Below, piece by piece: positions 5,156 through 51,493 of a stretch of DNA of 64,000 nucleotides. Under the pieces are notes generated by a model. It saw only the letters and a program-made list of their open reading frames with translations, did not search any database and had not been told where the DNA came from. Made by a program: the position numbers and the translations under genes. The stretch covers positions 478,046 through 542,045 of the forward strand of contig CAVYIM010000005.1 in assembly GCA_963768655.1 (NCBI GenBank). The letters are read 5' to 3'. The stretch's first letter is position 1; each line of letters starts with the position of its first letter. The stretch comes from an uncultured Chloroflexia bacterium (lineage in GTDB: Bacteria > Chloroflexota > Limnocylindria > Limnocylindrales > CSP1-4).

Positions 5156-5306
5156 GACCAGGCCTCAGAAGGGCAGGATGCGCAGCTTGACCGTCGCTGC
5201 GCTGCTGGGCGTCTTCGTAGTGGCGGCCGTTCTGGCGGTGATCAGCCGGCTCTTGCCGGGTCGGCTCTCGCGGATCGTGCGTAGGCCGGGCGGCGGCGGC
5301 TCGTAG
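5148..5306 (+). CDS. Small putative single-pass membrane protein (52 aa)
   Basis: Manual translation MAETRPQKGRMRSLTVAALLGVFVVAAVLAVISRLLPGRLSRIVRRPGGGGS; ATG overlaps the chorismate mutase stop; AAAGGTGA SD upstream. Confidence 0.5.
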   Translation: MAETRPQKGRMRSLTVAALLGVFVVAAVLAVISRLLPGRLSRIVRRPGGGGS

Positions 5307-5464
5307 CCGGATCGGGCGTCGCGTTTCGACGATCGCCGGGGCAGCGGTCGCGAACGGGAGACTTGCCCGCTCGACCCCGTGGCGAACGCAGATGGTCAAA
5401 CGTCGCGAAGACTTCTGGGTCACCCCGATACGGAAATGGCCCCTGCCGTCCGACACCTTGGAGG

Positions 5465-7525
5465 ATGCCTGATACCCAGACCTCCGAGCGGACATCCAAT
5501 TCGGTCTGGGGGCGGCTGCGGTCACGTCTACGCCACATGAGCGGGGTGGGCCGCGGGATCGCACCCAAACTGGATCTGTTCGTGCTGGCCGTGACGTTGG
5601 TGATGCTGGCGTCGTGCATCGAGGCCGACTATCAGGCCGGTGCCGCCGTCGCCCTTCTGCTGGCCGTCCTGGTCGTCCTCCGACAGATGCTGACGGTGCG
5701 TCAGGTCGTGGAGATCGACCGGGCGCGTCGTCAGTCCGAGGCTCGCTTCGGCTGGCTGGTCATGAACTCATCCGACCTGATCATGGCCGTCGACTCCCAC
5801 CGCAAGATCGACTACGTGAGCCCTTCGGTAAAGCGCCTGCTCGGGGCCGGCGACGGCAAACTCCTCGGCGCCCGCCTGACCGACCTCGCTCATCCCGAGG
5901 ACGCCCGCGCCATCGAGGGGCTGCTGGACCGGGCCGCGCGCTCGCCAGGCGAACGCGTCAGCGTCGAGTGGCGGATCCGCCAGGGCGATGGGACGTGGCT
6001 GCCGGTCGAGACCGTGGCCACCAGCGGCGCGCTCGACGGCGACGCCCCCGGAGTGGTGCTCAACACTCGCGACCTCCAGGAGCGCAAAGCCCTCGAGCAG
6101 AAGCTGACGTTTCAGGCGTTTCATGATCCGCTGACCCGGCTGGCCAACCGCAGCCTCTTCCGAGAGCGCGTCGAGCATGCGCTGGAGCGGCGCCAGTCCG
6201 GCGATACTTCGGTGCTGTTCATCGACCTGGACAACTTCAAGACGATCAACGACAGCCTGGGACACGCCGCGGGCGATCACGTTCTGGTCGAGACGGCGCA
6301 CCGGTTGCGCTCGACTCTGCGCGCGGAGGACACGGCGGCACGACTCGGAGGCGACGAGTTCGCGGTCCTGCTCGAGGACGCCGACGTGACCGCTTCGGCG
6401 CGTATCGCGGAGCGCATCCGCTCGACGCTCGGAGTGCCGTTTTGGGTCATGGGCCAGGAGGTCTTCATCAGCGCCAGCATCGGCATCGCGACGCGCGAGC
6501 CGGGCGACACGGCTACCGAGCTGCTGCGCAACGCCGACGTGGCGATGTACACCGCCAAGACGAAGGGCAAGGCTCGCTTCGAGATCTTCGAGGCCAGGAT
6601 GCACGACGCGGTCGTGGCCCGCCTTGGCCTGGAGGCCGAGCTTCGCCGCGCCATCGACCGACGCGAGTTCGTGATCCACTACCAGCCCATCGTGAAGCTC
6701 GAGACGGGCGAGGTGATCGGGGCGGAGGCCCTCGTTCGCTGGCAGCATCCGACCCGTGGCATGGTGCCGCCGCTGGAGTTCATTCCGCTGGCCGAGGAGA
6801 CGGGCCTGATCGTGCCGCTCGGAGGCTGGATCCTGAGGCAGGCCTGCCGCCAGCTCGCCGAATGGCAGCGCCTCCGCGGCGGCGGCGAACCCTTCGTCAT
6901 GAACGTCAACCTGTCGTCGCGGCAACTGGTGCGTGACGTCATCGCGGACGAGGTCGCGGCAGCCGTGGATGAGTCGGGCATCCGTGCCAGCTGGCTCGTT
7001 CTGGAGGTGACGGAAACGGTCCTGATGGCGGACCCGGTCGTTGCCGCCACGGCCCTGGGGCACATCCGCGACCTGGGCGTGCGGGTGGCGCTGGACGACT
7101 TCGGCTCCGGCTACTCGTCGCTGAGCCATCTGCGCCGTTTCCCGATCGACATCGTCAAGATCGACAAGTCCTTCGTCGACGACGTCGCCAGCGGCGGCGT
7201 GGAGTCGGCCATCGCCCGAAGCATCATCGACCTCGGTCGGGCGATGCAGATCGACACCGTCGCCGAGGGGATCGAACTCGATGAGCAGGCGGAGATGCTG
7301 CGGTCACTGGGCTGCGAATTCGGCCAGGGCTTTTACTTCGCAAAGCCGCTGGAGCCCGCGGCCTGGGAGGAGCTGCTCCAGACCGATTTCATCGGCGGCG
7401 CCGAAGGCGGCGCCGATGGGAGTGGCGCGGGCGGGAGTGGCGCGGGCCGCCGTGCCGCGAGCAACCGAGGCGCGGGCAACCGGTCCTCCGACACGAAGCG
7501 GCGTCATCGGCGAGCCGCCGCGTAG
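5465..7525 (+). CDS. Membrane-anchored PAS-GGDEF-EAL diguanylate cyclase/phosphodiesterase
   Basis: Two hydrophobic helices, PAS (HPED), HDPLTRLANR, GGDEF, EALVRW, DDFGSGYSSL, VKIDKSF; start uncertain (5465 follows GGAGG; 5537 is an alternative). Confidence 0.93.
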   Translation: MPDTQTSERTSNSVWGRLRSRLRHMSGVGRGIAPKLDLFVLAVTLVMLASCIEADYQAGAAVALLLAVLVVLRQMLTVRQVVEIDRARRQSEARFGWLVMNSSDLIMAVDSHRKIDYVSPSVKRLLGAGDGKLLGARLTDLAHPEDARAIEGLLDRAARSPGERVSVEWRIRQGDGTWLPVETVATSGALDGDAPGVVLNTRDLQERKALEQKLTFQAFHDPLTRLANRSLFRERVEHALERRQSGDTSVLFIDLDNFKTINDSLGHAAGDHVLVETAHRLRSTLRAEDTAARLGGDEFAVLLEDADVTASARIAERIRSTLGVPFWVMGQEVFISASIGIATREPGDTATELLRNADVAMYTAKTKGKARFEIFEARMHDAVVARLGLEAELRRAIDRREFVIHYQPIVKLETGEVIGAEALVRWQHPTRGMVPPLEFIPLAEETGLIVPLGGWILRQACRQLAEWQRLRGGGEPFVMNVNLSSRQLVRDVIADEVAAAVDESGIRASWLVLEVTETVLMADPVVAATALGHIRDLGVRVALDDFGSGYSSLSHLRRFPIDIVKIDKSFVDDVASGGVESAIARSIIDLGRAMQIDTVAEGIELDEQAEMLRSLGCEFGQGFYFAKPLEPAAWEELLQTDFIGGAEGGADGSGAGGSGAGRRAASNRGAGNRSSDTKRRHRRAAA

Positions 7526-7779
7526 CTCGCTCTGCGTCGCGTCCAGTCCGTGGCCCGTTGCTGAGGATTATTCGCCCTCGGGCATGCTGCTGACTGCAAG
7601 AACGGCACGCGCCCGCCACAAGGCTGAGCTAGTCTCCTATTCAGACGTCCGGCCGATAATCCCGACGCCGCAGGGAGAAGCCGCAGGGGTCGCGATTGCC
7701 GGATCGGGACGGGACGTCGGTCGGGGATTCCTCGAGCCACGGCCGAGACTCGCCTGCATTGGGGAAGGAGAACCGTCAC

Positions 7780-9758
7780 GTGGCGACAGCCAGACGCCTG
7801 TACCTGTACGTGGTTTCGGCCGCCGGCCTGATCCTGATGGTGGCGGGGTCGGCCATTCTTCTGGAGGTCCTGATCAACAAGGTTGGCGTCGGTCAGCCGC
7901 CAACGGGCGGGGTACACGTTGACCGCGACATGCTGAGCCTGGCGATAGCCCTCGGCCTGGTCGGATTCGTCGTCTGGCTGGCCCACTGGTCCATCGTCGA
8001 ACGGATGGTCACCGGGCCGTCGGCCGGGGCGGCGGAGTTGGCACCTGGTACGGCCGATGCCGCGGCGGCCGAGCGCCGGTCGATCGTGCGGTCCGTCTTC
8101 CTGGCGCTCGTCGCATGGACCAGCCTTGTGTACGCGGCGACGCTCGGGGCCGGCCTCGCCGGCCGCGCGATCGCGGACGTCCTGGGCGCCCCGCAGGTCT
8201 CGCCGCTTTCGACTACGTCGCTTTCGGTCCCGTCGCTGCTGCCGATCGGCGACGCCTGGTCTTTGTCGATCATCCTCGTGCTTTGCGCCGTCTGGGCGTA
8301 CCACGCCTGGATTCGCAGCCGCGACGTCCGCCAGGGGCCGGCCATCAAGGGCGCTGCCGCATGGGTTTCGAGGTTCTACCTCTACTACGCGGCGTTCACC
8401 GGACTGGTCACAGTCCTTGAAATCTCTCCTCGCTGATCAACACGGCCGCGACCCAGGTGGCGCTTCCCGACCAGTCCGGCGTCACCTCCTACTTCAGCGA
8501 GCCGACGAACACGTTCACGAATGCGGGCTCCTCGGGATGGGAGCGGCCGGCGATCGCCGCTCTTGTGGGCATCGCGATCTACGGTGCGATATGGCTGATC
8601 CACTGGATCTACTCGAACCGCCTTTACTCGGGTTCGAGCGAGCAGTCGGCCCTCGAGCGCTCCTCGAGAGTCCGGCTCGCTTTCCTCATGACCGTGGTGC
8701 TCTACGGCGCGGCGACGATGGTCGGCGGTTTCGGCGCCGGGCTCGGTCAGCTGTTCAGCTCGGTTCTCGGTGTGAGCAACGCCGAGCCGTTGTGGTACCT
8801 GGTGCTCGTTCCGCCCGTTGCGGCGGTGCCAGCCGGGCTGGCCTGGTGGTGGCACCGGCAGCGCGCTTTCGCCGAAGCGACATCGCACCCGGACGGCATC
8901 TCGGCGAGCCGTATCGCCGGCTATCTGGTGGCCCTGGTCGGGTTGACGGCCTTCGCCGCGGCCCTGGAGGATGGCCTGGCCACGATTTTCGGGCAATGGT
9001 GGCCGCCTTCGACGAACGCCCTCTTCGGGAACATCGTCACTCCTGATTCTGTGTGGAAGTCAGCGGTCGCCGCCGACGGCGCACTCGTTCTCGTCGGCGT
9101 GGCCGTCTGGGTCGGGCCCTGGTTGTTCGCCCAGCGCCGGCGCGCGGCCGCTGCGATCGAGCGTGAGGTCGAGCTCGGATCCTCGTCGCGGGCCTACTAC
9201 TTGTACGTCATCGCCGGCGCGGCCGTGCTGGTCCTCGCCGGGAACGCGGCTGTCCTGGCGTACCGAGGCCTCCGCCTGGGCTTCGGGCTGCCCGAAACCA
9301 GCTTCGGCTCGGAGGTCAGCGGTGCGATCGCGGGAGCCCTGGTTGCGGCCTTGATCCTCGCCTACCACGCCCGCGTTCTGCTAACGGATAGGTCGAAGCC
9401 GGCGCCGATGGCGGGAGCGATGCCGGGGGCGGTGCCGTGGCCCGGCGCGCCGGCGGGCGGCCCGATGGGCGGCCCCGCGCCGATGCCGCCCACGCCGATG
9501 GCACCGCCGCCGATGCCGCCCGCGCCGATGGCCCCGCCGCCGATGCCGATGGCGCCGTGGCCCGGCGCGCCGGCGGGCGGCCCGATGGGCGGCCCCGCGC
9601 CGATGCCGCCCACGCCGATGGCACCGCCGCCGATGGCACCGCCGCCGATGCCGGAGACCGAGCCGATCCCCGGTCAGACCCCTGGTCCGGATCAATCCGG
9701 TGCAGGCGGCCCAGCCGGCCCCGCTCCGGCTGACGAAGGACCGGTCTCAAACAGCTAG
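7780..9758 (+). pseudogene. Multi-pass repeat membrane protein (DUF5671-like) with Pro/Met-rich tail, split by a 1-nt frameshift near 8421-8433
   Basis: Repeated RxxYLY modules (RRLYLY, SRFYLY, RAYYLY) in ORFs 7696-8436 and 8457-9758; they join as ...LEIS/SSLINTAATQVALP with one base restored; GAAGGAG SD before GTG 7780. Confidence 0.65.
9434..9650 (+). repeat. ~80-bp direct repeat (period 120) plus CCGATG micro-repeats encoding PWPGAPAGGPMGGPAPMPPTPMAPPPM twice
   Basis: gccgtggcccggcgcgccggcgggcggcccgatgggcggccccgcgccgatgccgcccacgccgatggcaccgccgccgatg at ~9434 and ~9554. Confidence 0.9.
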
Positions 9759-38748: not shown

Positions 38749-40133
38749 CGCTGGAAGACCGCCATCTGCGTGGCCGAGCCGACGATGGGATCGACCGGCC
38801 CGATCGGCAGGCGACGAACCTCGTAGCCGAACTTGGCCGCGACGGAGTCGGACCAGGCGGCGAACTCGTCGCGCGTCCACTCGAAGCGGTGGTCGCGGTG
38901 GCGGAACCGGCCTTCCGGGAGCGTCTCGAAGCGGACGTTGAACTCTGAGTTCGGAGTAGTGACGACGACGGTCGCCGGCTTCGCGAACTCGAAGACCACG
39001 CGCTCCAAGGCCGGCAGGCGACCTACCTCGAGATGCTCGATGACCTCCATGAGAACAGCCGCGTCGTATCCGGCCAGACGGGCATCGCGATATGTCAGGG
39101 AGCCCTGGATCAGCTTGAGACGAGCCCGCTGGCGCTCGTTCATTCGATCCGTCCGAAGCTTGCGGGCCGCGATCTCAAGCGACCGCGCTGAAACGTCCAT
39201 GCCGACGATCTCGGTGAAGGCGCGATCCGCGAGCATCTCAGAAAGCAGGCGGCCTTCGCCGCATCCGAGATCGAGAACGCGGGCGGCGCCGGCGGACCGC
39301 AGGGCGGCCATGACCGCACCGACGCGTTCGTCGGACAGGCGCATCGGCTTCTCGACGGCGGCCTCTTCGGCGTCGCGGTGGTCTTCCTTCTCGTCGGGGT
39401 CGGGCTCCTCGTCGGCGGTGAGCTGGCGAAGAGCCTCACGCGTCAGGCTGCCCTGTCGGGCAAGGTATCGATTGGCGATCAGCTCACGATCGGGGTGCGC
39501 GGGCAGCCAGCCCTCGCCGCGGCGCAGGAGTTTGGCGATTTCGTCTTCGGTGACCCAATAGTGCTTCTTGTCGTCGAGGACCGGGATGAGTACGTAGAGG
39601 TGCGTGAGCAGGTCCTGAAGGCGGAGGTTGGCCGTGAGGGTCACCGTGTAGTAGGGGCTGTTGCCCCAGTTGGCGAAGGTCTCGGTCAGCGGATGAGCTT
39701 CCGTGGTGACGGTGTACCCGAGGGGCTCGAACAGCCGGCGGATCAGGTTCTCGCCGCCGCGCGACGGCAGGGTTGGAAAACCGACCTCGAATGGCAGCGG
39801 CTCATCGACGAGCTCAGGCCGGCCGGTGCTGCGACCGCCCAGCGCCGATCCGAAGACCTGGCCGATCGCGACGCTCATGAACGACGAGGCGACATACGGC
39901 CGGTCGTTGACGTAGGGCTCCAGCGACGCGCCCTGATGGCGACCTCTCGCCAGGCCGACCGGGTCGATATCGAGCAACAGCGCCGCGGTGCAGCGATCGT
40001 TCGACGCCTCCGGGTAGAAGACGTGCGATTGCCCGAAAGCAAGCTCGCGCGAATGCACCCGACCGGGGCTCTTGTGGAGCAGGTACCCCAGGTCGGTCGC
40101 GGGCGGCTTGGTCAGAGTGATGGTGAGAAGCAC
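38745..40133 (-). CDS. hen1: 3'-terminal RNA ribose 2'-O-methyltransferase Hen1
   Basis: PATDLGYLLHK, YVNDRPY, DDKKHYW, VLDLGCGEG, EVIEH, TTPN.EFN, RHRDHRFEW; ATGA overlap with pnkp. Confidence 0.95.
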   Translation of the reverse strand: MLLTITLTKPPATDLGYLLHKSPGRVHSRELAFGQSHVFYPEASNDRCTAALLLDIDPVGLARGRHQGASLEPYVNDRPYVASSFMSVAIGQVFGSALGGRSTGRPELVDEPLPFEVGFPTLPSRGGENLIRRLFEPLGYTVTTEAHPLTETFANWGNSPYYTVTLTANLRLQDLLTHLYVLIPVLDDKKHYWVTEDEIAKLLRRGEGWLPAHPDRELIANRYLARQGSLTREALRQLTADEEPDPDEKEDHRDAEEAAVEKPMRLSDERVGAVMAALRSAGAARVLDLGCGEGRLLSEMLADRAFTEIVGMDVSARSLEIAARKLRTDRMNERQRARLKLIQGSLTYRDARLAGYDAAVLMEVIEHLEVGRLPALERVVFEFAKPATVVVTTPNSEFNVRFETLPEGRFRHRDHRFEWTRDEFAAWSDSVAAKFGYEVRRLPIGPVDPIVGSATQMAVFQR

Positions 40134-40237
40134 CCGCGGATTGTGACAGGGATACCCGAGTAGTTCCTGCATGCTGAGTAGCCAGTCGGAGCACGATTCG
40201 GCGGCACAGGGGTGGCATGAGTCGGACCACTCTGTGG

Positions 40238-41184
40238 CACGGGGTCGGTGAAGACGAGACCGTCGAGATCCTGCCAGACCGTGCCGACGGCCTTGCGGTC
40301 GGCCTCCTGAGCCGCCCTCTGCCTGGTCAGCGCGTCGCGAGCCATCGATGGCAGCGGGATCGTCCGCCGGCTCTTCGGTGTCTTCGGCTGCGACAGACCC
40401 CAGCTGCCGTCCTTGGTCCGGACAAGCGAGTGGCGGACCGAGAGCGTGCCGGCCGTGAAGTCGATGTCGCTCCAGGCCAGGCCGAGCAGCTCGCCGAGAC
40501 GAAGGCCTGTCGAGGCAGCCAGCGCGAACACCATGCCCATCGGATCGTCCCGGGTGGCGTCCAGCAGGCGCCGAACGTCGGCGGCCGCCAAGTAACCGAC
40601 GGGCCGATGCGGGACATATGGCGGCCTCGCGTCCGCTGCCGCGTTCCGCCCAATGCGGCCATCTCGGACCGCGTCGGCAAGGGCACGGCGGAGCGTCGCG
40701 CGGACATGCCGGACAGTGAGTGGCGAAAGGGGCCGAGGCGGCAGACCGTGCACCAGGGTCTCGCCTTCCTTCGGCCTGCCAGCATCCACGAACCTCGCCA
40801 TCGCGCGCTCAACCTGGATTGGAGTCAGTTTCGCGAGGGAGAGCTTGCCGAACGCGGGGATCAAGTACGCCCGGGACATGCTGCTCGCGGCCGCGCCAGG
40901 TGGCCGGGCGGATGCGCGTCCGCTCGCGCTCGAGCCAGTCGGTCAGGTACTCGGCCACGGTACCCGATCCTGCCGGCGTCAAAGTTCCGAGCTTGAGATC
41001 GCGCCGGAGCTCGTCGAGCTTGTCTCGGGCTGCCTGGGAGGTCGCGCCTCGAACGACCCGGCGGTGACGTGAGCCGTCGTCATCGGTCCAGGTCAGCGCG
41101 CCGCGCCAGCCTTCGCGGGTTTCGTAGACGGACCCCTCGCCGCGGAGCGGTGGCGTTCCTTCGGGCGGCGGTGGCGTTTGTCAC
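40238..41184 (-). pseudogene. Tyrosine integrase, frameshifted (~40873, ~41145) and C-terminally truncated
   Basis: RGEGSVY arm-binding N-terminus, TVAEYLTDWL, LAKLTP, LRRALADAV, TGLRLGELLGLAWSDIDF, PKTPKSRRTI, GLVFTD; ends before the HxxR and Tyr boxes. Confidence 0.88.
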
Positions 41185-41337
41185 GGTAGCGTTCCTCGAT
41201 GACCGGGGCCTCGTAGGGTCCCGGGAGGCTAACGCGTACCGTTCGAGACTGCATCTCTGTTGCTACCGGTGTTGCTACCGGTGCCGATTCCTCGTCCCGC
41301 CAGTCGGCCCCAAGCGGCCATTTCACGCTCAGAATCG

Positions 41338-41423
41338 TGGCGGAGAGGGTGAGATTCGAACTCACGGGACTCTCGTCCAGCGGTTTTCAAGACCGCCGCA
41401 ATAGACCGCTCTGCCACCTCTCC
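41338..41423 (-). tRNA. tRNA-Ser(TGA)
   Basis: GGAGAGG acceptor stem, anticodon loop CTTGAAA, long variable arm, GTTCGAATC T-loop, encoded CCA. Confidence 0.96.
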
Positions 41424-41993: not shown

Positions 41994-42076
41994 ATCCACG
42001 AAAAGGCACACCCGCCGTGAGGCGGGGCCGCAAAGCCACGGAACTCTGGGTGAGTCAGCCGGGCTACCGAATGGGA
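41994..42076 (+). ncRNA. Cyclic di-GMP-I (GEMM) riboswitch
   Basis: AAAAGGCACACCCGCC-GTGA-GGCGGGGCCGCAAAGCCACGG...CAGCCGGGCTACCGAATGG fits GEMM P1/P2 (GNRA loop)/P3; G at the position equivalent to G20. Confidence 0.85.
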
Positions 42077-42084
42077 GTGGGGTT

Positions 42085-43056
42085 ATGCCGCGTTTCAGCT
42101 GCGTCCATTCGACTACACGCCGGAGCGACGCTGGCCCCGGCTCGAGTCACGCCAGATCCGGTCGGACGGCGATCGCACTCCTTCTGGTCGGAGGCTTCCT
42201 GTTCGCCTCCCCGCTGTCGGTCGCGGCGCAGGCCGCGCCCACCGCGGCGCCCGCAGCCGCGTCCACCGGGGCGTCCGGCTCTGGGACCGCTGGCCCAGAC
42301 GCGGCGGTATCTCTCAGCTCGCAGCCCACCGCGGCCGCGTCCATCGCCTCGCTGCTCGGCAATCCCGCTCCATCGGCGGCAGTCGTCACTCGAACCTTCG
42401 ATCTGTACGACCCGCGAGCCGAGCGCTACCAGAACCCCGATCTCACGGCCTGCACGGCGGCGTCCACGCTGTCGATGCTGAACACCATCGCCTACTCCTC
42501 CGGGTCGACCGTCGGTTTCGTGTGGAAGCCAACGACCACCTACAAGGAGCAGGAGTCGATCCTCGCCTTCGAGCGAGCGCACATGACGATGCTGGTCAGC
42601 TCTGCCGGAACCGATCCGCACGGCTGGCGCAACGCCCTCAACTACTTCGGCTGGGGCAGCATCTACGCCGGCGTCTATGTCGACGCCTCGTACTCGACAT
42701 TCGACGCCGCCGCGAAAGCGGCAGTATCGGCCCTGGCCAGAACTCACAAGCCCGTCGGGATCCTCGCCCTCGCGGGCGGACATGCACAGTTCATCACGGG
42801 CTACGAAGTCCAGGGCGCCGACCCGAGCACCGGATCGACCAGTTACTCCATCGTCGGCGTGTATCTCACCGACCCCTACCAGTCCGCCGGTCACCGCGAC
42901 ACCTTGATCACCTACGCGCAGTGGCACGCTGGCGGGAAGTGGATTCGCTTCTCCCCGTATCTGCAGATCGACTCGCCGCATCGCGACCCGATCGACGGCC
43001 ACATCGGCAAGAGCGAGTGGTACGGGAAGTGGGTGATCATCGCCCCGGTCAAGTAG
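42085..43056 (+). CDS. Secreted papain-fold (C39-like) cysteine peptidase
   Basis: Signal peptide, Ala/Ser linker, YQNPDLTACTAAS (Q..C), GHAQFITGY (H), VYLTDP (D). Confidence 0.7.
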   Translation: MPRFSCVHSTTRRSDAGPGSSHARSGRTAIALLLVGGFLFASPLSVAAQAAPTAAPAAASTGASGSGTAGPDAAVSLSSQPTAAASIASLLGNPAPSAAVVTRTFDLYDPRAERYQNPDLTACTAASTLSMLNTIAYSSGSTVGFVWKPTTTYKEQESILAFERAHMTMLVSSAGTDPHGWRNALNYFGWGSIYAGVYVDASYSTFDAAAKAAVSALARTHKPVGILALAGGHAQFITGYEVQGADPSTGSTSYSIVGVYLTDPYQSAGHRDTLITYAQWHAGGKWIRFSPYLQIDSPHRDPIDGHIGKSEWYGKWVIIAPVK

Positions 43057-43129: not shown

Positions 43130-43795
43130 GTGATCGATCTGCTGCAGCCAGCTATTCAGAAGGTCGTCGAGGTCGCTTCCCGCAAGGGCGTGGCCCTCGA
43201 TATCCGGCTCATGCCCCACTCCGCGCACGGCGCCGCAGGGGCCGCCGAGGCCGTGCATGCCGATCTCGGCCAGATGGTCAAGGTCCTTGTCTTTGTGGCC
43301 CCTCGGCCCGAGAACCGGCTGGCGCCGGTCGTGTGCCTCGTCTCGGCTCGCAACCAGGTCGATCTGGCATTGCTCGCGGCGGTCACGGGCGAGGTCGCAA
43401 TTCGAGCGGCCAGCGCGATGGAGGTACAAGACCTGACCGGGTGCACGGTCGACGCCGTCGCGCCGTTCGGACACGGCCGTGACGTGCGCGTCCTGATGGA
43501 TCAGGATCTGTGCGCCTACCAGTGGACCTGGGCCGCCGCGGGCGACGGCTCGGCTGTTTTCCGGGTCGCGCCCCGGACGTTACGGATGCTGTCCAACGCC
43601 GTCGTGGCCCCGGTCGCCACGGCCAGCCGGCTGGCGGTTCGCCGGGCCTACTGGGGCGGAAGGCTGCCCGAAAGCCGGGCAGGTCGACCGGAGCATGTGC
43701 GAGTGTCTTCAGCTCTTGAGCACGCCCACCATGCGGCCCGCATCTCGCCCCTCGACGGGCATCGCCTTGGGCCAGTAGCGTGGCAAGCTGAATGA
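43130..43795 (+). CDS. YbaK/EbsC aminoacyl-tRNA deacylase family protein
   Basis: AAEAV..LGQMVKVLVF, VDL..LA, TGCTVDAVAPFGH, MDQDL..WAAAG. Confidence 0.8.
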   Translation: MIDLLQPAIQKVVEVASRKGVALDIRLMPHSAHGAAGAAEAVHADLGQMVKVLVFVAPRPENRLAPVVCLVSARNQVDLALLAAVTGEVAIRAASAMEVQDLTGCTVDAVAPFGHGRDVRVLMDQDLCAYQWTWAAAGDGSAVFRVAPRTLRMLSNAVVAPVATASRLAVRRAYWGGRLPESRAGRPEHVRVSSALEHAHHAARISPLDGHRLGPVAWQAE

Positions 43796-44626
43796 GACAC
43801 GCACCCCCGCGGATGTCTCGTCGAGCCATATCCGGCCGCCATGCGCCTTGACGAGCTGGCGGCAGAAGTCGAGGCCGGGTCGTAGGCTCAGATCCGCGCC
43901 ATCCGGCGTCGCCAGCTTGATGTCGTGGTCGAACGAGCTGGCGCGACCCACCGAGGCGAGCGGCAGAGCGGGGGCCCCGATCCGAGGCGAGCGCGACTCG
44001 AGCGGCGAGCCCGAATCCGAGGTCTCGCTTGCGAGCGGCTCATCGCCTCCTTGCGCGCTGACTACCACCCACGCCCCGGTCGAGCGTGCGCCAACGCGCA
44101 CGGCCCGGCCGTCGGCCGAGTCACTGGCGGTCGCCGTGACGAGAATCCGCAGGACGGAGACGATCCACACGGGATCGGCATTTACCAGGGGCAGCGCCGC
44201 GGGCAGCTGGACAATCAGTCGCGGCGGGTCGGTCTCCTCGTCGAGCTGGCGGCCAAGCTGGCTCAGCAGACTGCTGATCGCAACCGCCTGACACATCGGC
44301 CGCCCGTCGTTCTTCGAGGTGGTAACCGAGAGCACCTCCTCGGTGAGCTCGGCCACGTGCTCACTCGCAACCGAGATTCGGGCGAGGTAGCGGCCCCGTT
44401 CCTCATCGTCCAGATCCAGGTGGAGCAGCGTCTGGCTATAACCGCTGACCAGCGCCAGAGTTGTCCGCAGCTCCCGGGAGAGAGCTTCGAGCAGGGCCGA
44501 CCTCGCAGAATCGTCGGCCGTCTGCACGACACTCGAGTACCTGTCGCGCGGGCGCCCGCCGGCGCGCGCCGGCTGCGACGCGGGGCGGACCGGAACCGCG
44601 CCGACCAGTCTCAGTTCTCGGACCAT
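43709..44626 (-). CDS. Degenerate histidine-kinase-like protein lacking the phosphoacceptor His
   Basis: SRELRTTLALVSGYSQTLL (H replaced by R), LPLVNADPV, GLDFCRQLVKAHGGRIW; GGGAGG SD before ATG 44626. Confidence 0.75.
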   Translation of the reverse strand: MVRELRLVGAVPVRPASQPARAGGRPRDRYSSVVQTADDSARSALLEALSRELRTTLALVSGYSQTLLHLDLDDEERGRYLARISVASEHVAELTEEVLSVTTSKNDGRPMCQAVAISSLLSQLGRQLDEETDPPRLIVQLPAALPLVNADPVWIVSVLRILVTATASDSADGRAVRVGARSTGAWVVVSAQGGDEPLASETSDSGSPLESRSPRIGAPALPLASVGRASSFDHDIKLATPDGADLSLRPGLDFCRQLVKAHGGRIWLDETSAGVRVSFSLPRYWPKAMPVEGRDAGRMVGVLKS

Positions 44627-44662
44627 CGAGACGCCTCCCTGTGTCGCGCCTGTCTCGACGGC

Positions 44663-44724
44663 AAAAAAAACCCGCCACGGCATAGGTGCCGGAGCGGGAC
44701 TTCTCCGAATCGTAGTCCCGGAGA
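44663..44724 (-). terminator. Intrinsic terminator with overlapping antiterminator (attenuator) in the pseudo-kinase leader
   Basis: Minus strand CCCGCTCCGGCA-CCTA-TGCCGTGGCGGG-T8 (44698-44663); competing GGGACT/AGTCCC stem (44719-44696). Confidence 0.8.
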
Positions 44725-44815: not shown

Positions 44816-45391
44816 TCAGGGCGAAACCCTGACCACTCCGGCAAGGCTCATAGCGCACTCGAGGCCCACGACGACGCTGTCGGCCGTGACGAGGAGCCGG
44901 CGCGCGGCGTCGGGTGAATCGATGAGACCATCTGCGACGATCGGCCGCGGCAAGCTCTCGAGGTCGCCCGCCGTCAGGTGTGACAGGACCGGGCCAGGCG
45001 AGATGACGGTGCCGACGCCCGGCCTGGCCGGGTGGCTCTCGAGGGCGCGTTTCAGGCCCGTCGAGTCGAAGGCGAAGATATGGACGAGACCAAGTGCGCC
45101 CGCTTCGGCGGCGAGTGCGGCGAGGGCGGGCCGTCGCGTCATGACGATCCCGATCCCCAGGCTGCCCACGACGAACCTTGCCCCTGCCTCGTCAGCGTTC
45201 AGGCCATCCACGCCGTCCAGGTCAACGGCGAGCCTCTCCCGGCCGGCCTCTGCCTGGACCACAAGGGACGTCAGATCCAGGTCACGCAGGAGTATCCCGA
45301 CCTCCACGTCGCCCGCCCCGTCAAGGGATAGGCGTCCGGAGCCGGCGACGAAGACCGGGGGCAGGATCTGGTGCGATGGGCTGTCAGGCAA
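44816..45391 (-). CDS. glpP: Glycerol-3-phosphate-responsive antiterminator GlpP-like paralogue 2
   Basis: AVDLDGVDGLNADEAG, IVMTRR, HIFAFDS, ISPG, PIVADGLI align with the GlpP pattern. Confidence 0.7.
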   Translation of the reverse strand: MPDSPSHQILPPVFVAGSGRLSLDGAGDVEVGILLRDLDLTSLVVQAEAGRERLAVDLDGVDGLNADEAGARFVVGSLGIGIVMTRRPALAALAAEAGALGLVHIFAFDSTGLKRALESHPARPGVGTVISPGPVLSHLTAGDLESLPRPIVADGLIDSPDAARRLLVTADSVVVGLECAMSLAGVVRVSP

Positions 45392-45974
45392 GCTGAGCTC
45401 CCCACAGGCTCTGGGTGCTGGTCGTCACGCCGGCCGCCCCGGCGGCCAGCGCGGCACGTGCTTCCGCCGCGGTCCGTATGAAGCCGCCGGCAAGGAGCGG
45501 CACGTCCATTTGAGGGAGGAGATGGCGCACGTCCGGCAGGATGACGCCAGGCAGGATCTCCACGATGTCCGCTCCGGAGCGAGCGACCGCGGACAATCCC
45601 GAGTCGAGCAGGCTGCGCCGGACGAGCAGCAGACGATGGATCCCGACCATGTGCTCGCGGCGGATCGCGGGCATGAGCTGGCCGTGGGAGCTGATGACCG
45701 CATCGACGCCGGCCCGGGCGAGCCAGACGACGGCGGCGCGATCCGGCCGCAACCCGTCGACCAGATCTAGGTGGACCGCCACGAGCTTGCCGGCAGCATG
45801 GACGCGGACCACCAGAGGTCGCATCTCGAGCCCGTCGCCGCGCAGGATGAAGAGCGTCGAAACGGCACTCGCGAGGGCCGCCTCGAGATGCGCGTCGGAC
45901 GTGATCGCAGCGCAGCAGGGCGACGCGGCCAGCCGAGCCAGGAACTCCGAAAGTTTGGCCGAGGGAGCTGCCAT
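45384..45974 (-). CDS. glpP: Glycerol-3-phosphate-responsive antiterminator GlpP
   Basis: GKLVAVHLDLVDGL..D, ADIVEILPG, PLLAGGFI, AGAAGVTTS..LW. Confidence 0.88.
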   Translation of the reverse strand: MAAPSAKLSEFLARLAASPCCAAITSDAHLEAALASAVSTLFILRGDGLEMRPLVVRVHAAGKLVAVHLDLVDGLRPDRAAVVWLARAGVDAVISSHGQLMPAIRREHMVGIHRLLLVRRSLLDSGLSAVARSGADIVEILPGVILPDVRHLLPQMDVPLLAGGFIRTAAEARAALAAGAAGVTTSTQSLWGAQLA

Positions 45975-46050
45975 TCCGCGTCCTCATCGTCCTGCCGGAG
46001 CTACAGCTTAGCCCAGCGCCGCAACGGCAAGACCGATGCGACTCGGTCTG

Positions 46051-46458
46051 TCAGTGATAGGAAGTGATCACCCAGGTCAGCCAGAGCCCGTAGGCGACGA
46101 TCACGACGCCCAGCCCCGAGAGGACGCGAGTGATCCAGGACTCGACCTTCGGGCTGAACCCGAAGTCGAACAGCACGGCGCGCAGGCCGAGCAGGCCATG
46201 CCAGGTCACCGCGACGAGGAATACCACCTCGAGCACGACGACCGCCGGGTTCGACATGTAGGCCACGACGTCGGCGAAGTCGCGCAGGCCGTTCTTGACG
46301 ACGAAGTGGTTGGCAATCATGTGGAGCGTCACGAGGACCAGGACCAGCATTCCTGTCACGGCCTGCAGAATCCAGCCCCATGTGGGCTTCGTCACTTCGC
46401 CGGAAGGGCTCCACGTCGTTCCGGTCCGATCGCGCGGGGGTTGCTCTCGTGTGGTCAT
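46051..46458 (-). CDS. sdhD: Complex II-type hydrophobic anchor (SdhD-like)
   Basis: Three TM helices; WILQAVTG..LHM, WHGLLGLR..LFD (two His haem ligands). Confidence 0.85.
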   Translation of the reverse strand: MTTREQPPRDRTGTTWSPSGEVTKPTWGWILQAVTGMLVLVLVTLHMIANHFVVKNGLRDFADVVAYMSNPAVVVLEVVFLVAVTWHGLLGLRAVLFDFGFSPKVESWITRVLSGLGVVIVAYGLWLTWVITSYH

Positions 46459-46462
46459 TCCT

Positions 46463-46894
46463 CTACCCCACCTCGATGATGCGGAGGGCGGCAACGACAA
46501 GGACGATCGCGCCGAGCACCATCAGCGCCACCAACATCGCTCTCTGTCGATCGACCACCAGGCCGAAGCCGACGAGCGTCACCCGGATTCCGTTCAGCCC
46601 GTGGAAGAGCAGGCCAAAAATCAGGACGATGTCGAAGAAGAGGAACACCGGGCTCAGAGCGACCGAGACGAAGTCGTTCCAGGCCGACGGCCCGCGAGCC
46701 AGCAACGACAGCACGATGAGGTGGAGGAAGAGATAGAGCAGGATTCCGAGTCCGGTCAGCCTGTTGATAATGAAGGCCCATCCCCCAAGGCGCCGGCCGC
46801 GAGGATCGCCCCAGCCGGCCACGCCGCGCCTGCGCCGGCTCGCGCCTTCGGCTCCGCGCTGGACCGAATTCCGCTCGACTGATTCCTCTCTCAC
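46463..46894 (-). CDS. sdhC: Complex II-type cytochrome b556 subunit (SdhC-like)
   Basis: WAFIINRLTG..YLFLHL, FHGLNGIR; GTG overlaps the sdhB stop. Confidence 0.85.
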   Translation of the reverse strand: MREESVERNSVQRGAEGASRRRRGVAGWGDPRGRRLGGWAFIINRLTGLGILLYLFLHLIVLSLLARGPSAWNDFVSVALSPVFLFFDIVLIFGLLFHGLNGIRVTLVGFGLVVDRQRAMLVALMVLGAIVLVVAALRIIEVG

Positions 46895-47664
46895 GAATGC
46901 CTCCCGCCAAAGATGGACCGCAGCCGTTCGGCCGCCAGCCGCCGCCGCAGAAGCATGATCTTGCCCGCCGGATCGACATTCGACGGGCACGCATCCGAGC
47001 ATTCGAAGGCGGCGTGGCACCGCCAGGTCCCCTGCGCATCGTCGGTGAGCTGGAGCACTGCCTCAGGATCGAGCCCGCGCGGCTCCTCGACCGCCCGCCA
47101 GGCCGCAGCCAGCGCCGCCGGCCCGAGATATCGCGGGTCCGTAGCGACGACCGGGCAGGCCGAGAGGCAGAGCCCGCATTCGATGCAGCTCTCGAAGCGC
47201 CCGTAGCCCTCGACACCGGGCGGCACGGCTGACCCAGTCAGCCAATCGCTCTTCTGCACGAGGGCTCGGCCGATGGCGTTGAATCTGGCGTAGAAGTCGA
47301 CCATGTCCGTGGCGAGGTCCGCAACAAGGGCCTGATTCGCGATCGGCTCGACCTTGACGACCGAGCTCCGGAGCTCTACGACCTTGGTGACGCAAGCCAT
47401 CACCTCGCGGTCGTTGACCCGCATGCCGCACGTCCCGCACGACGCATGGAAGCACGAGTGACGAAGAATGAGAGTCGGATCGAACCGAGTGCGGATGCTA
47501 GTGAGGGCATCCAGGACCGTCGTCTCCTCGGCCACGTCGACCGTGAACTCGTCGAAGTGGGGGGCGCGGTCGCCTTCCTTGTAACGAAAGACGCGGAAAC
47601 GGACCGGCCGGCCCGTGCCTTCGGTGGCATGGGTATCTCTGTGCGGATCCATCACGGCGCTCAT
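46891..47664 (-). CDS. sdhB: Complex II-type iron-sulfur subunit (SdhB/FrdB-like)
   Basis: TVLDAL, SCFHASCGTC..MAC [2Fe-2S], CIECGLCLSACP, YLGPAAL, WRCHAAFECSDACP; ATG overlaps the glpA stop. Confidence 0.92.
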   Translation of the reverse strand: MSAVMDPHRDTHATEGTGRPVRFRVFRYKEGDRAPHFDEFTVDVAEETTVLDALTSIRTRFDPTLILRHSCFHASCGTCGMRVNDREVMACVTKVVELRSSVVKVEPIANQALVADLATDMVDFYARFNAIGRALVQKSDWLTGSAVPPGVEGYGRFESCIECGLCLSACPVVATDPRYLGPAALAAAWRAVEEPRGLDPEAVLQLTDDAQGTWRCHAAFECSDACPSNVDPAGKIMLLRRRLAAERLRSIFGGRHS

Positions 47665-48863
47665 GCGTAGTAGGCGGTATGGGGGAGCAGGGGATACTCC
47701 CGCGTCCGGCACGGGCTCTCGATCCCCAGCTTCCTGCAGACGACGTCGGCGGTCGCCTCAGCCATCGCCCGGAGAGTCGTCGCCTTACCTCCGGAGATGG
47801 TCACGATGCCCTCGACGCCCTCTTCGGCCTTGTGGTCGAAGCACTTGAACGTCCGGCTCAGCTCGCGTCCGGACGCGGCACTCCGCTCGCCGACGAGCGG
47901 GCGCGCAGCCGACCAGGTGGCGCGTGTCTGGGCCGACCGGATCGTCGGGATCAGCGCCGAGCCCGACTGGAACATCATCTCCACGTGGTCTGCAGGAACG
48001 GTGAGACGGTCCGGGTCGTCGGTCACCCAGGAACTTGTCCCGATGACAGAGAGCTCGCGCTGGGGCACGACTATGTCCCCGTCGCCGGATTCGTGGAGCC
48101 GATTGATAACCATGTTGCAGAAGCGGCCCCGGACGGCGACCAGAATCCCAGGAGAGGGCTGGATCGGCACGTCGACGCCGGCCATACGGGCGACCCTCTC
48201 GCCCCAGGGTCCGGCTGCGTTCACGACAAGGTCCGCGCCAATCTCGTAGCGCCGGCCGTTGGTATGGTCCTGCACTGACACTCCTGTGACGCAGTGGCCA
48301 TTCGGCCGCTGGACGATCGTCATCGCAACGGCCTCGGTGAACGGCCTGATCGTCGCCCCGTTCCGCTTGGCCGTGGCGAAGAAGCGCAGTGGCAGGCGCA
48401 TCGCGTCCATCGTCCCGTCCGGGACCTGGACCGCGCAGCGCAGCGCCGGGTTGAGGTTTGGTTCGAGGCGCAGCGCTTCCTCGCGTGTCACCCGGCGTGC
48501 CGGGATGTTCGAGGCGAGGCAGGACTCGAAGAAGCGCGGCTCGTACGCCTCGTCCTCCGCCGTGATCGCCACGAACAGCCCGTCGTTCAGCTCGAGCGAA
48601 TCGGGAGCGATCCGGCGAAGGATCTGGTTCTCCTCGATGCACTCCACGGCCGACTCCCGGTCCTTCACCGCATATCTCGCCCCGCTGTGCAGGAGACCGT
48701 GGTGCCGGCCGGTAGTGCCGGATGTCAGCTCACCCCGCTCGACGAGCGTGACGCGCAGACCGCGCAGCACGAGGTCGTGCGCAACTGCTCCTCCGGTTCC
48801 CCCTCCCCCGATGATGACGACGTGGGGCGCGCTTCTTACTTGAGACATCTGTGCCTGAGGCAT
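47661..48863 (-). CDS. glpA: FAD-dependent glycerol-3-phosphate dehydrogenase, GlpA-like, without C-terminal BFD domain
   Basis: IIGGGGTG, SGTTGRHHGLLHSGARYAV.D.ESAVECIEEN, VNAAGPW, GDGDI, RPL, ISGGKATT.R.MAE, CRT. Confidence 0.9.
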   Translation of the reverse strand: MPQAQMSQVRSAPHVVIIGGGGTGGAVAHDLVLRGLRVTLVERGELTSGTTGRHHGLLHSGARYAVKDRESAVECIEENQILRRIAPDSLELNDGLFVAITAEDEAYEPRFFESCLASNIPARRVTREEALRLEPNLNPALRCAVQVPDGTMDAMRLPLRFFATAKRNGATIRPFTEAVAMTIVQRPNGHCVTGVSVQDHTNGRRYEIGADLVVNAAGPWGERVARMAGVDVPIQPSPGILVAVRGRFCNMVINRLHESGDGDIVVPQRELSVIGTSSWVTDDPDRLTVPADHVEMMFQSGSALIPTIRSAQTRATWSAARPLVGERSAASGRELSRTFKCFDHKAEEGVEGIVTISGGKATTLRAMAEATADVVCRKLGIESPCRTREYPLLPHTAYYA

Positions 48864-48918
48864 CTGTACGTCACGTCTCACGCGTGTTGGCCGACCTTCG
48901 CGGCTGCTGCTTGAACCC

Positions 48919-48946
48919 CGGTGGGCCGGCCTGGGCCGGCCCACCG
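48919..48946. other. Perfect GC-rich inverted repeat between glpK and glpA
   Basis: cggtgggccggcc-tg-ggccggcccaccg; no U-tract. Confidence 0.7.
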
Positions 48947-48962
48947 AAGCCCGTCAGAGGTG

Positions 48963-50459
48963 CTACTCGACCCAGTCGAAGGTCCGGGTCACGGCCTTCT
49001 TCCAGAGCTTGTAGTCCTTCTCGCGAGTGGTCGCGTCCATTTCGGGCGCCCACTCCTTGTCCTTCTGCCAGTTGGCCCGCAGGTCCTCGACCGCGGCCCA
49101 GAAGCCGGTCGCGAGGCCGGCTGCGTAGGCCGCGCCGAGGGCTGTCGTTTCAGCCACCTTAGGCCGGACCACCGGCACGCCCAGGACGTCGGCCTGGAAC
49201 TGCATGAGCAGGTTGTTGAACACCATGCCGCCGTCAACCTTGAGGGCCTTGAGCGGAACGCCGGAGTCGGCGTTCATCGCGTCGAGAACCTCGCGGGTCT
49301 GCCAGGCCGTCGCCTCGAGAACCGCCCGGGCGATGTGGCCCTTGTTCACGTAGCGGGTGAGGCCGGCGATGACTCCTCGGGCATCGCTCTTCCAATACGG
49401 AGCGAAGAGCCCCGAGAAGGCCGGCACGAAGTACACGCCGCCGTTGTCGTCGACGGTCTTGGCCAGGTCTTCGATCTCCGACGAGGTCTTGATCATGCCC
49501 AGGTTGTCGCGCAGCCACTGGACGAGGGCGCCGGTGATCGCGATCGAGCCCTCGAGGGCGTAGACCGCGGGCTGGTCGCCGATCTTGTAGCCGAGCGTCG
49601 TCAGCAGACCGCTCTTGGACGGCACTGCCTTCGTGCCCGTGTTGAGGAGCATGAAGCAGCCGGTGCCGTAGGTGTTCTTCGCCTCGCCGGGCGAGAAGCA
49701 TGTCTGGCCGAAGAGGGCGGCCTGCTGGTCGCCGAGGTCACCGGCAACGGGCACGCCAGCGAGATCGCCAACGGCCTTGCCATAGACGGCGCTCGACGGC
49801 TTGACCGCCGGCAGCATGGAGCGCGGGATGGTCATGAGCTTTAGGATCTCGGGATCCCAGTCGAGGGTCGCAAGATTCATGAGCATCGTCCGGCTGGCGT
49901 TACTCACGTCGGTGACGTGAACGCCGCCGTTGACGCCGCCGGTGAGATTCCAGATGCACCACGTGTCGATGTTCCCGAACAGCAGGTCGCCTGCCTCTGC
50001 CTTGGCGCGGGCGCCGGCGACATTGTCGAGAATCCACTTGACCTTCGGACCGGAGAAGTAAGTTGCGAGCGGCAGGCCGACCTTGGCCCGCAGGCGGTCC
50101 TGGCCGCCCTGCTTGGCAAACTCATTGATGATCACGTCCGTCCGGGTGTCCTGCCAGACGATCGCGTTGTAGACCGGCTTGCCGGTCTTGCGATCCCAGA
50201 CGACCGTCGTCTCGCGCTGGTTGGTGACTCCCACCGCAGCGAGGTCCGAGGCGGCGATGCCCGCCTTCTTGAGCGCGCCACGGATGACCTCGCCGCAGCG
50301 GGTCCAGATCTCCATCGCGTCGTGCTCGACCCAGCCCGGCTTGGGGTAGATCTGTTCGTGCTCTTTCTGATCGATCCCGACCACGCCACCGCTGTGGTCG
50401 AAGATCATGAAACGTGTGCTTGTGGTGCCCTGGTCCAGGGCGCCGACATACTTGGCCAT
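48963..50459 (-). CDS. glpK: Glycerol kinase
   Basis: [69 protein letters not shown]. Confidence 0.98.
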
Positions 50460-50728
50460 ACGGACCTCACTTCGTTCGCTTCGACCAGAAGAACGTTCCT
50501 ATCGGGCAGCCTCGGATCACACGCCCGCGGCAGGCCCTCAGGAGTGCACACCAAGAGTTGCGGGGGTCCTGGTGACCCTCGCTGCGCTCTCTGACATTGC
50601 TCACCCGACACCCTGGCTGAGGCGTCGTGAGCTTCCCTACGAACCTCTTCGCCACCACACGGCGTCAGCCCCGCGTGTCGTCCCGCCGGCGCGAACGAGA
50701 TCGAGCCGGCGGCGACGGACAGGGACGA

Positions 50729-51493
50729 CTAGTGCGGAATCTGCAGGACGATGTAGTTCGTGAAAGCGACGTAGTAGACGATCGCCGCCAGGGCGCCGCC
50801 GATCAGCGGGCCGACGACAGGAACCCACGAGTACGCCCAGTCGGAGCCGCCCTTGCCGGGGATCGGCAGGATGGCGTGGACGATGCGCGGACCCAGGTCG
50901 CGGGCGGGGTTGATTGCGTATCCGGTCGTGCCTCCCAACGAGAGGCCGATGACCACGACCAGCAGACCAACGGGCAGCGCGCCTAGATCGGCTGGCGCCT
51001 TCGATCCCGGTTGGCCGAACGCGAAGATCACGAAGACGAGCACGAAGGTGCCGATGATCTCCGAGATCAGGTTGAGGGGCAGGTTGCGGATGTTCGGCGC
51101 TGTGCAGAACACCGCCAGCTTCAGGGCCTTGTCTTCGGTAGCCTTGAAGTGGTCCCAATAGTGGAGTGACACCAGGGCCGCACCGATCATTGCGCCAATG
51201 AACTCACCGGCGATGTATGGAGGAACGGCCTGCCAGGTGATACCTGTGCTGCCCTGCTTGATCGATTCCATCGTTGCGAGGCCGAGTGTCACGGCCGGGT
51301 TGAGGTGAGCGCCGCTGAGCGGTCCCGCCACAACCACGCCGCAAAACACGGCCAGACCCCATGCCATGGTTATGACAATCCAGCCGGCATTCTGGGCCTT
51401 GGATTTCGTCAGCAGCACACCCGCCACGACGCCATCGCCCAAAAGGATGAGCGTCGCGGTTCCGAAGACCTCAGCGAAGAACTTCTCCCACAT
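50729..51493 (-). CDS. glpF: Glycerol uptake facilitator (MIP family)
   Basis: [10 protein letters not shown] and [17 protein letters not shown] motifs; GAGGAG SD. Confidence 0.96.

Follow-up and report, generated by a model that had tools for sequence, protein, structure and literature searches.

The locus described here raises the question of what three genes of the complex II type are doing in a glycerol operon. In the genome of an uncultured Chloroflexia bacterium of the order Limnocylindrales (assembly GCA_963768655.1, 3.37 Mb on 9 contigs, rated 88.6% complete), a stretch of 64,000 nucleotides, in the following called the window (G000:C5:478046-542045, on contig CAVYIM010000005.1), contains seven tightly packed genes, all on the (-) strand at positions 45384-51493, in which glpF, glpK and a short glpA are followed by sdhB-, sdhC- and sdhD-like genes and then by a glpP-like gene (Table 1). 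The original prediction, made from the sequence of the window, had described this order and its overlaps correctly: the TGA stop of glpA shares bases with the ATG of sdhB (ATGA), and the TGA stop of sdhB shares bases with the GTG that opens the sdhC frame (GTGA); a GAGG-type stretch is found 5' of the sdhD ATG. It is also true, as had been claimed, that the cluster contains neither sdhA or frdA (there is no PF02910-bearing gene) nor glpB or glpC. The gene arrangement is far beyond chance, as the same order is seen again in all 80 related public loci. It is likely that the genes glpA, sdhB, sdhC and sdhD together encode one membrane-bound glycerol 3-phosphate (G3P):menaquinone oxidoreductase, and that this is the respiratory G3P dehydrogenase of the organism.

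If the four proteins act in this way, glycerol would enter the cell via GlpF and be phosphorylated by GlpK, and the short GlpA, whose family is evident and whose substrate would be G3P, would oxidise it to dihydroxyacetone phosphate (DHAP) on non-covalently bound flavin adenine dinucleotide (FAD). GlpA, which lacks both an Fe-S tail and the partners GlpB and GlpC, would dock on the SdhB-like subunit at the place that SdhA takes in complex II. From FAD the electrons would pass to the [2Fe-2S], the [4Fe-4S] and the [3Fe-4S] cluster, for all of which the ligands are present, and then to menaquinone at a putative site where SdhB, SdhC and SdhD meet, perhaps with the involvement of two b haems that would be held by two His of SdhC and two His of SdhD, as in type A succinate:menaquinone reductases. 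Chloroflexota and Actinomycetota use menaquinone, and the G3P/DHAP couple is about 100 mV more reducing than menaquinone and far more reducing than succinate/fumarate; the reaction, unlike succinate oxidation, would therefore need no input from the membrane potential. The GlpP protein of Bacillus subtilis is known for G3P-responsive switching, and by analogy the GlpP of the cluster probably turns the operon on in response to G3P.

The pairing of a short glpA with an sdhB-like gene is conserved far beyond the window. Two GlpA peptide patterns were compared with 185,579 species-representative genomes, which resulted in 569 matches and 517 confirmed relatives, and the locus counts given here refer to the best 80 of these 517, all of them from metagenome-assembled genomes (MAGs). 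An SdhB-like gene lies immediately 3' of the short glpA in all 80 loci, which belong to Chloroflexota, Actinomycetota and one Binatia MAG. Both SdhC and SdhD were detected in 64 loci and SdhC alone in 5, a further 4 loci end at a contig break within 1.2 kb, and the remaining 7 have a different partner that contains a CCG domain. The glpA-sdhB and sdhB-sdhC gaps in related loci are mostly in the range of -4 to +15 nt, and in the closest relatives the proteins are 85-91% identical and the gene order is kept. The glpA-sdhBCD synteny is thus conserved in two phyla with respect to sdhB in all loci, and with respect to sdhC plus sdhD in most of them. At the protein level, 7063 of 8000 scored candidates passed as relatives of the short GlpA (386-424 aa), the best 120 being 69-91% identical; the named sources of such relatives are Candidatus Limnocylindrales, Chloroflexi, Anaerolineae, Promineifilaceae, Solirubrobacteraceae and one "Deltaproteobacteria" MAG, and they are annotated just as "FAD-dependent oxidoreductase" or "glycerol-3-phosphate dehydrogenase".

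Within the genus of the window, the SdhB-like gene is found directly 3' in 19 of 19 distinct loci with a GlpA of at least 53% identity (the own locus included, and L036 left out as a repeat of L020), and it is next door in none of the 10 loci with GlpD-like matches of at most 44% identity. Several species of this genus carry two paralogous glpA-sdhB sets. In six others, whose loci (L022-L027) are among these 10, a GlpD-like gene that is 25-38% identical to the short GlpA adjoins glpK, with no sdhB, and one dehydrogenase type thus takes the place of the other even among closely related species. The frequency of the system was estimated in draws from two phyla, with the natural fused protein P0088 as query and adjacency read from the match coordinates. 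In an even draw of Chloroflexota, a short-GlpA-type match of at least 49% identity was obtained in 20 of 401 genomes (a 155-residue fragment in G077 was left out of the count), and SdhB adjoins in 19 of these 20 carriers, in 18 cases among the matches listed and in one, G357, across a contig break. In Actinomycetota, a match of at least 52% identity was obtained in 13 of 301 genomes, and the SdhB part adjoins in all 13. Both denominators include a few genomes that are flagged as unpublished, none of which is a carrier.

The functional relation is further supported by natural fusions. A search with the junction region of P0088 resulted in 31 clusters of single-chain proteins that combine a DAO with a Fer2_3 domain (P0088, P0121-P0150), 570-752 aa in length and 62-100% identical at the junction, and four more distant fusions were found in addition (P0155, P0158, P0159, P0178). 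Fusions are encoded also by isolates, namely Cellulomonas sp. SG140, Cellulomonas sp. P24, Pengzhenrongella phosphoraccumulans, Isoptericola sp. b490 and Actinotalea sp. M2MS4P-6. In an Actinomycetales MAG (L112), an in-frame fusion of 689 aa, 74% identical to P0088, is followed by sdhC- and sdhD-like genes. The different partner in 7 of the 80 loci is an SdhB-like protein of 516-567 aa with a C-terminal CCG domain, a domain of the type seen in GlpC, HdrD and TfrB; this form was found in Solirubrobacteraceae and further Actinomycetota and in one Binatia MAG, and at none of these seven loci could an SdhC or SdhD be detected downstream.

The relation of these SdhB proteins to each other and to SdhBs of succinate dehydrogenases was addressed in a tree of 68 rows, which comprised the window, every second one of the 59 complete loci with separate genes (30 in total), the 7 CCG forms, 10 fusions and 20 weaker SdhB matches from other Chloroflexota, all of the latter encoded beside sdhA; the frame-broken SdhB of the own genome was excluded, and the tree was calculated by a quick search with midpoint rooting and no bootstrap. 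The 20 SdhA-linked SdhBs all lie on one side of a branch with a Shimodaira-Hasegawa-like approximate likelihood ratio test (SH-aLRT) value of 99, and 43 GlpA-linked SdhBs (31 separate-gene forms, 6 fusions of the Cellulomonas type and 6 CCG forms) form a clade with an SH-aLRT value of 95. The Binatia row and the four distant fusions are placed outside of the GlpA-linked clade on long branches. The CCG forms nest among SdhCD-type rows of Solirubrobacterales, and therefore the anchor has been swapped within the clade and the GlpA-SdhB pair has been kept.

An interface between GlpA and SdhB, which had been proposed, is predicted also by complex modelling. GlpA was modelled together with the SdhB-like protein (an alignment of 60 sequences for each), FAD and a [2Fe-2S] cluster, and the pair scored 0.94, 0.95 and 0.94, in comparison to 0.01 for the best of three controls. 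In the calibration, 58 of 80 solved complexes and 2 of 110 mismatched pairs had attained the mark, and these counts are a rough guide here due to own alignments and riding ligands. At least 96% of the contacts agree between the runs, and the predicted local distance difference test value (pLDDT) of the partner is at least 91. In the predicted interface, SdhB residues 63-76, the loop with three of the [2Fe-2S] cysteines, lie against GlpA 44-53 and 314-319, and further contacts are formed by SdhB 5-13 with GlpA 288-291 and by the C-terminal tail of GlpA (394-400). GlpA 44-53 and the stretch after it correspond to the peptides that had been chosen as most conserved by the locus scan. No solved structure joins a DAO-family flavoprotein to SdhB, so that the pass is not the memory of a like complex, although SdhA-SdhB complexes are well known to such prediction models. 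The docking of GlpA on the SdhB-like subunit is thus a prediction of the modelling, and it is supported by the fusions and the synteny.

The SdhB-, SdhC- and SdhD-like proteins need not belong to a succinate dehydrogenase. On contig C6 of the same genome, there is a canonical sdhC-sdhD-sdhA-sdhB row with a second Fer2_3 match and the only strong match to the SdhA C-terminal domain (PF02910), a further PF02910 match on contig C4 being weak (21 bits). A separate set, the presence of which the original prediction had put forward as a check, thus exists, and therefore the glp-linked sdhBCD is not the only set of the genome and does not have to work with an orphan sdhA. In the assembly, several frameshifts break the reading frames of sdhA and sdhB at the C6 locus (L005, about 3700-7020). 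Four public runs yielded contigs that contain 1-base indels in comparison to the assembly at L005 5588-6280, with 12 places tabulated, 8 of them common to all four runs, and 12 more places beyond those tabulated, and the long run contigs over this stretch have 16 to 24 gaps against the assembly; these contigs represent populations of 90-99% similarity, that is, relatives rather than the proven same strain. The idea that the canonical sdhA is a pseudogene was rejected, as the shared 1-base indels and the gaps indicate a local assembly error, and what is seen at C6 looks like a locally error-ridden stretch of the assembly and not like gene decay.

It could be thought that the operon simply unites two unrelated enzymes, a GlpA that functions alone in the manner of GlpD or GlpO, and SdhB/C/D-like proteins that constitute a spare set for the distant SdhA. 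GlpD, which works without Fe-S partners, would be a precedent, the broken look of the canonical sdhA and sdhB frames in the assembly could be taken as a reason for a spare set, and in one genome, G161, the short GlpA is not linked to the GlpA-type SdhB. However, the two proteins are a single chain in 31 clusters, their genes are adjacent in 80 of 80 loci and mostly overlap or nearly touch, the predicted interface is far above the best control (0.94 versus 0.01), and the GlpA-linked SdhBs form a clade apart from the SdhA-linked ones. Moreover, the canonical locus has an sdhB, an sdhC and an sdhD of its own, and the broken frames there look like assembly errors. Two unrelated enzymes are thus a very improbable explanation.

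The sequences of the three complex II-type subunits fit to a function of the four proteins as one oxidoreductase. All three Cys sets that had been noticed in the SdhB-like protein are present (CxxxxCxxC...C, CxxCxxCxxxCP and CxxxxxCxxxCP, ligands of a [2Fe-2S], a [4Fe-4S] and a [3Fe-4S] cluster), and the 11 cysteines C71, C76, C79, C91, C160, C163, C166, C170, C216, C222 and C226 are invariant among 60 homologues. Its closest solved relative is E. coli FrdB (3.7e-37). W214 and H217 in a W-R-C-H stretch of SdhB are invariant as well, and so is R46 of SdhC, the Arg of its NRLTG motif; these three residues may correspond to residues of the proximal quinone site in the succinate:quinone reductase of E. 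coli. The closest solved relative of the SdhC-like protein is SdhC of Mycobacterium smegmatis Sdh2 (6LUM_C, 1.8e-16), which has HRITG at the position of NRLTG, in line with the deviation from HRxTG that had been pointed out. The two transmembrane His of SdhC (contexts LFLH-LIV and LLFH-GLNG) do not vary among 60 homologues, and they align with His C47 and His C87 of 6LUM, which are, together with His D65 and His D107, the ligands of haems bD and bP according to the cited part of the work on that enzyme (PMC7447783). In SdhD, H46, H51 and H87 are invariant in 60 homologues, and H46 and H87 align with the ligand histidines of 6LUM_C, their spacing being 41 residues in comparison to 40 in SdhC. 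The two transmembrane His in each of the anchor subunits are thus real and conserved, and the four His are, judged from the sequence, the pattern of a type A di-haem anchor. One could go further and regard the complex II Fe-S/di-haem chassis as a general socket for quinone reduction, into which a DAO-family flavoprotein can be plugged, with the two-haem wire coupling the enzyme to the membrane potential and menaquinone being reduced at a distal site at the outer face; such a coupling, absent from GlpD and GlpABC, would arise from the much greater reducing strength of G3P in comparison to succinate. This extension of the proposal is rather doubtful.

As to the substrate, the best family matches of the flavoprotein are two GlpA models, followed by the models of GlpD and G3P oxidase. 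The match to the GlpA model TIGR03377 (3.9e-132) covers the profile positions 1-378 of 530, with positions 379-530 unmatched, and NF008313 is matched with 377.3 bits (E 1.2e-112) at a cut-off of 425. The protein ends with ...CRTREYPLLPHTAYYA, and a Pfam scan (E <= 0.01) detected the DAO domain only, no BFD-type domain and no DAO_C (PF16901), which is why the C-terminal BFD-like domain can be considered to be missing, as had been proposed. R63, R321, R337 and K360 of the short GlpA align with R54, R317, R332 and K354 of E. coli GlpD (2QCU) and are invariant among 60 short GlpAs; in GlpD, these residues are assigned a role in G3P binding and catalysis. In 57 of the 74 loci that have at least 400 nt room upstream, glpK is directly 5' of the short glpA, and glpF is present in 44 of the 80 loci. 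The gene glpP is found in only 5 of the 80 loci; the four closest relatives (L037, L038, L039, L041) have it directly 3' of the module, and L109 has it elsewhere in the locus. At two loci (L082, 3200-5872; L099, 4440-5888), a GlpC-like gene with Fer4 and CCG domains is found directly 5' of glpA-sdhBCD, with glpK beyond, and these genomes may have parts of a classical and of an SdhB-type G3P dehydrogenase side by side.

In the genome of the window, the short GlpA is the sole candidate found for a respiratory G3P dehydrogenase, beside glpF and two copies of glpK, because tblastn with the window proteins detected no second GlpA/GlpD homologue in the genome, and the family searches detected no match to TIGR03378 (GlpB), no GlpD-type DAO_C domain (PF16901), and for GlpC (TIGR03379) a best match of 93.7 bits at a cut-off of 279.9. 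This GlpC-profile match lies outside of the window at G000:C5:30618-31679 and covers the profile positions 48-396 within a 987-aa frame, the product of which is probably not GlpC but an FAD-linked oxidase fused to CCG domains. The second glpK is located at G000:C7:45591-47078, and its product is 94% identical to the GlpK of the window; it was considered as a part of a second glp operon, which was rejected since no glpF, glpA or sdhB-like gene lies within 8 kb.

The four proteins might also form the complex and pass electrons to quinone, with a substrate other than G3P, such as another small alpha-hydroxy or amino compound. The DAO superfamily covers many substrates, and the solved relatives of the short GlpA include, besides GlpD and GlpO, glycine and sarcosine oxidases; the score below the TIGR03377 cut-off and the 14 of 74 loci with upstream room in which no glpK at all was found within the locus would also fit to such a deviation. 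On the other hand, the GlpA models are at the top with E-values of 1.2e-112 to 3.9e-132 and the GlpD models come next, the residues aligned with those of E. coli GlpD are invariant, glpK and glpF accompany the module at the frequencies given above, and one of the loci without adjacent glpK, that of the Binatia MAG, has a gene for a DhaM-like phosphotransferase system (PTS) protein upstream. The genome itself contains glpF, two glpK and no other candidate for a G3P dehydrogenase, and another substrate is therefore considered to be very improbable. It is even conceivable that what this particular genome contains is a remnant, in decay or not expressed, of a module that is functional elsewhere, as indel-ridden stretches do occur in other parts of the assembly and a search of public sequencing runs listed no RNA run with the operon. 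However, all seven frames of the cluster are open with intact overlaps and cofactor ligands, the closest relatives with their 85-91% identity have the same gene order, and with a remnant the genome, which has retained glpF and glpK, would be left without any other candidate for a G3P dehydrogenase, which makes decay extremely improbable.

Several points weigh against the interpretation of the four genes as one G3P:menaquinone oxidoreductase. The short GlpA reaches 441.5 bits with TIGR03377 and thereby stays under the cut-off of 552.8, because it has nothing that matches the C-terminal third of the profile. In 17 of the 74 loci glpK is not directly 5', and it is elsewhere in the locus in 3 of these 17. 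In G161, the short GlpA (55% identical; L138, contig C34) is followed by a convergent LacI-type gene, and the GlpA-type SdhB (43% identical) is found on another contig (L139, C33) by DegV- and PfkB-family genes. The modelling supports GlpA-SdhB binding as a prediction that was scored for this pair alone, and the haem content, the type of quinone and the quinone site are what we infer from sequence. With the rated completeness of the genome, a missing glpD or glpBC means "not found". Finally, neither the bacterial form nor any biochemical test was found in the full-text literature searched, by which most subscription journals are not covered. The hybrid G3P:quinone oxidoreductase of the original prediction, with GlpA in the place of SdhA on a di-haem chassis, is the best-supported mechanism and well supported in silico, by the separate sdhCDAB locus, the synteny, the predicted interface and the fusions.

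How does this system relate to known ones? For Thermofilum-related archaea, a complex termed "GlpA-SdhBCD (T. pendens)" has been drawn on the basis of phylogenetic clustering and downstream synteny, as far as can be taken from the cited passages of that work (Schmerling et al. 2025, PMC11962113). Compared by description, the gene sets are alike, as in each of them a GlpA that lacks the canonical C-terminus precedes sdhB-, sdhC- and sdhD-like genes, and both are interpreted as membrane-anchored electron-transfer complexes and known from genes alone. The proposal there is archaeal, whereas the system of the window is bacterial, and the fused and CCG variants are not mentioned in the cited passages (PMC11962113). 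As an archaeal complex of this kind has already been drawn, the term "candidate new respiratory complex" in the original prediction overstates the novelty; what is new in relation to the cited passages is the wide distribution in bacteria and the fused and CCG variants. The system of the window is a bacterial member of the kind proposed for archaea, known here from genes and models. The same work describes a truncated GlpA of Sulfolobus acidocaldarius that relies on a separately encoded protein for its membrane association, and in this respect GlpA-CoxG is similar, but its CoxG-like partner is small and devoid of redox centres, where the window has a putative full Fe-S and haem wire (PMC11962113, cited passages).

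With GlpABC of E. coli, the system has in common the catalytic subunit of the GlpA family and, as proposed, an electron transfer to quinone via Fe-S proteins, but its GlpA has no C-terminal domain and stays under both equivalog cut-offs, and an SdhB-type protein with three clusters together with an integral two-subunit anchor stands in the place of GlpB and GlpC. GlpD (E. coli, 2QCU; Bacillus, 3DA1) resembles the short GlpA in the FAD domain, in the substrate-side residues and in the position next to glpK; GlpD differs in that it is monotopic, carries DAO_C and works without an Fe-S partner, whereas the window protein lacks DAO_C and is followed by three partner genes. The three-cluster SdhB, the two small anchor proteins and the four His at the positions of haems bP and bD are shared with the type A enzyme Sdh2 of M. 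smegmatis (6LUM), as far as it is described in the cited part of PMC7447783, and the differences are the flavoprotein, which is a DAO-family GlpA and not of the SdhA/FrdA type, and NRLTG in the place of HRITG in SdhC.

Table 1. Genes of the glycerol cluster in the window and loci with the CCG form of the SdhB-like partner
Feature	Position	Strand	Family evidence
glpF, glycerol facilitator, 254 aa	50729..51493	-	PF00230 MIP 5.5e-46; TIGR00861 189.9 bits, cut-off 171
glpK, glycerol kinase, 498 aa	48963..50459	-	TIGR01311 746.5 bits, cut-off 590
Short GlpA-type FAD flavoprotein, 400 aa, without canonical C-terminal domain	47661..48863	-	PF01266 DAO 5.9e-46
SdhB-like Fe-S subunit, 257 aa	46891..47664	-	PF13085 1.7e-24 and PF13183; TIGR00384 180 bits, cut-off 88
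SdhC-like membrane subunit, 143 aa from GTG	46463..46894	-	PF01127 2.3e-12
SdhD-like membrane subunit, 135 aa	46051..46458	-	PF01127 3.6e-13
glpP-like G3P-responsive antiterminator, 196 aa, last gene of the cluster	45384..45974	-	PF04309 5.7e-40
CCG-form loci L084, L091, L093, L097, L100, L101, L111	about 7100-8900 in each		

Some features in the vicinity of the cluster may be mentioned. The G+C content of the window is 63-76% and falls to 0.63-0.64 at 28-34 kb. On the 3' side of glpP, an open reading frame (ORF) at 43709-44683 (-) has weak matches to HisKA (6.2e-07) and HATPase_c (3.3e-04) and could encode a short, possibly soluble histidine kinase. A match to the c-di-GMP-I-GGC riboswitch at 41996-42072 (+), with 61.5 bits at a gathering score of 59, is found directly 5' of an ORF of 323 aa (42085-43056), the N-terminus of which resembles a signal peptide by eye. 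A tRNA-Ser(TGA) gene is located at 41338-41423 (-), and its neighbour, an ORF of 255 aa (40112-40879, -), resembles by eye the C-terminal portion of a tyrosine recombinase/integrase; this region (40112-41423) may mark the edge of an integrated element.

With respect to bacteria, canonical glpA is said to co-occur consistently with glpB and glpC (PMC11962113, cited passages), and the bacterial glpA-sdhB data presented here contradict this statement. If the four genes indeed encode one enzyme, it would be a third type of respiratory G3P dehydrogenase, wired by Fe-S clusters and haems, beside the textbook enzymes GlpD and GlpABC, and the electron-transfer module of complex II would be able to serve a flavoprotein of another superfamily. 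The anchor of the system appears to be modular, as most members have an SdhCD pair and 7 of the 80 loci have a CCG domain fused to SdhB. As the fused forms are present in cultured and harmless relatives of Cellulomonas, the question is directly testable. Should a coupling to the membrane potential turn out to be true, this would be a new bioenergetic mode of glycerol respiration, which would then be found in about 1 in 20 of the sampled species of Chloroflexota and Actinomycetota.

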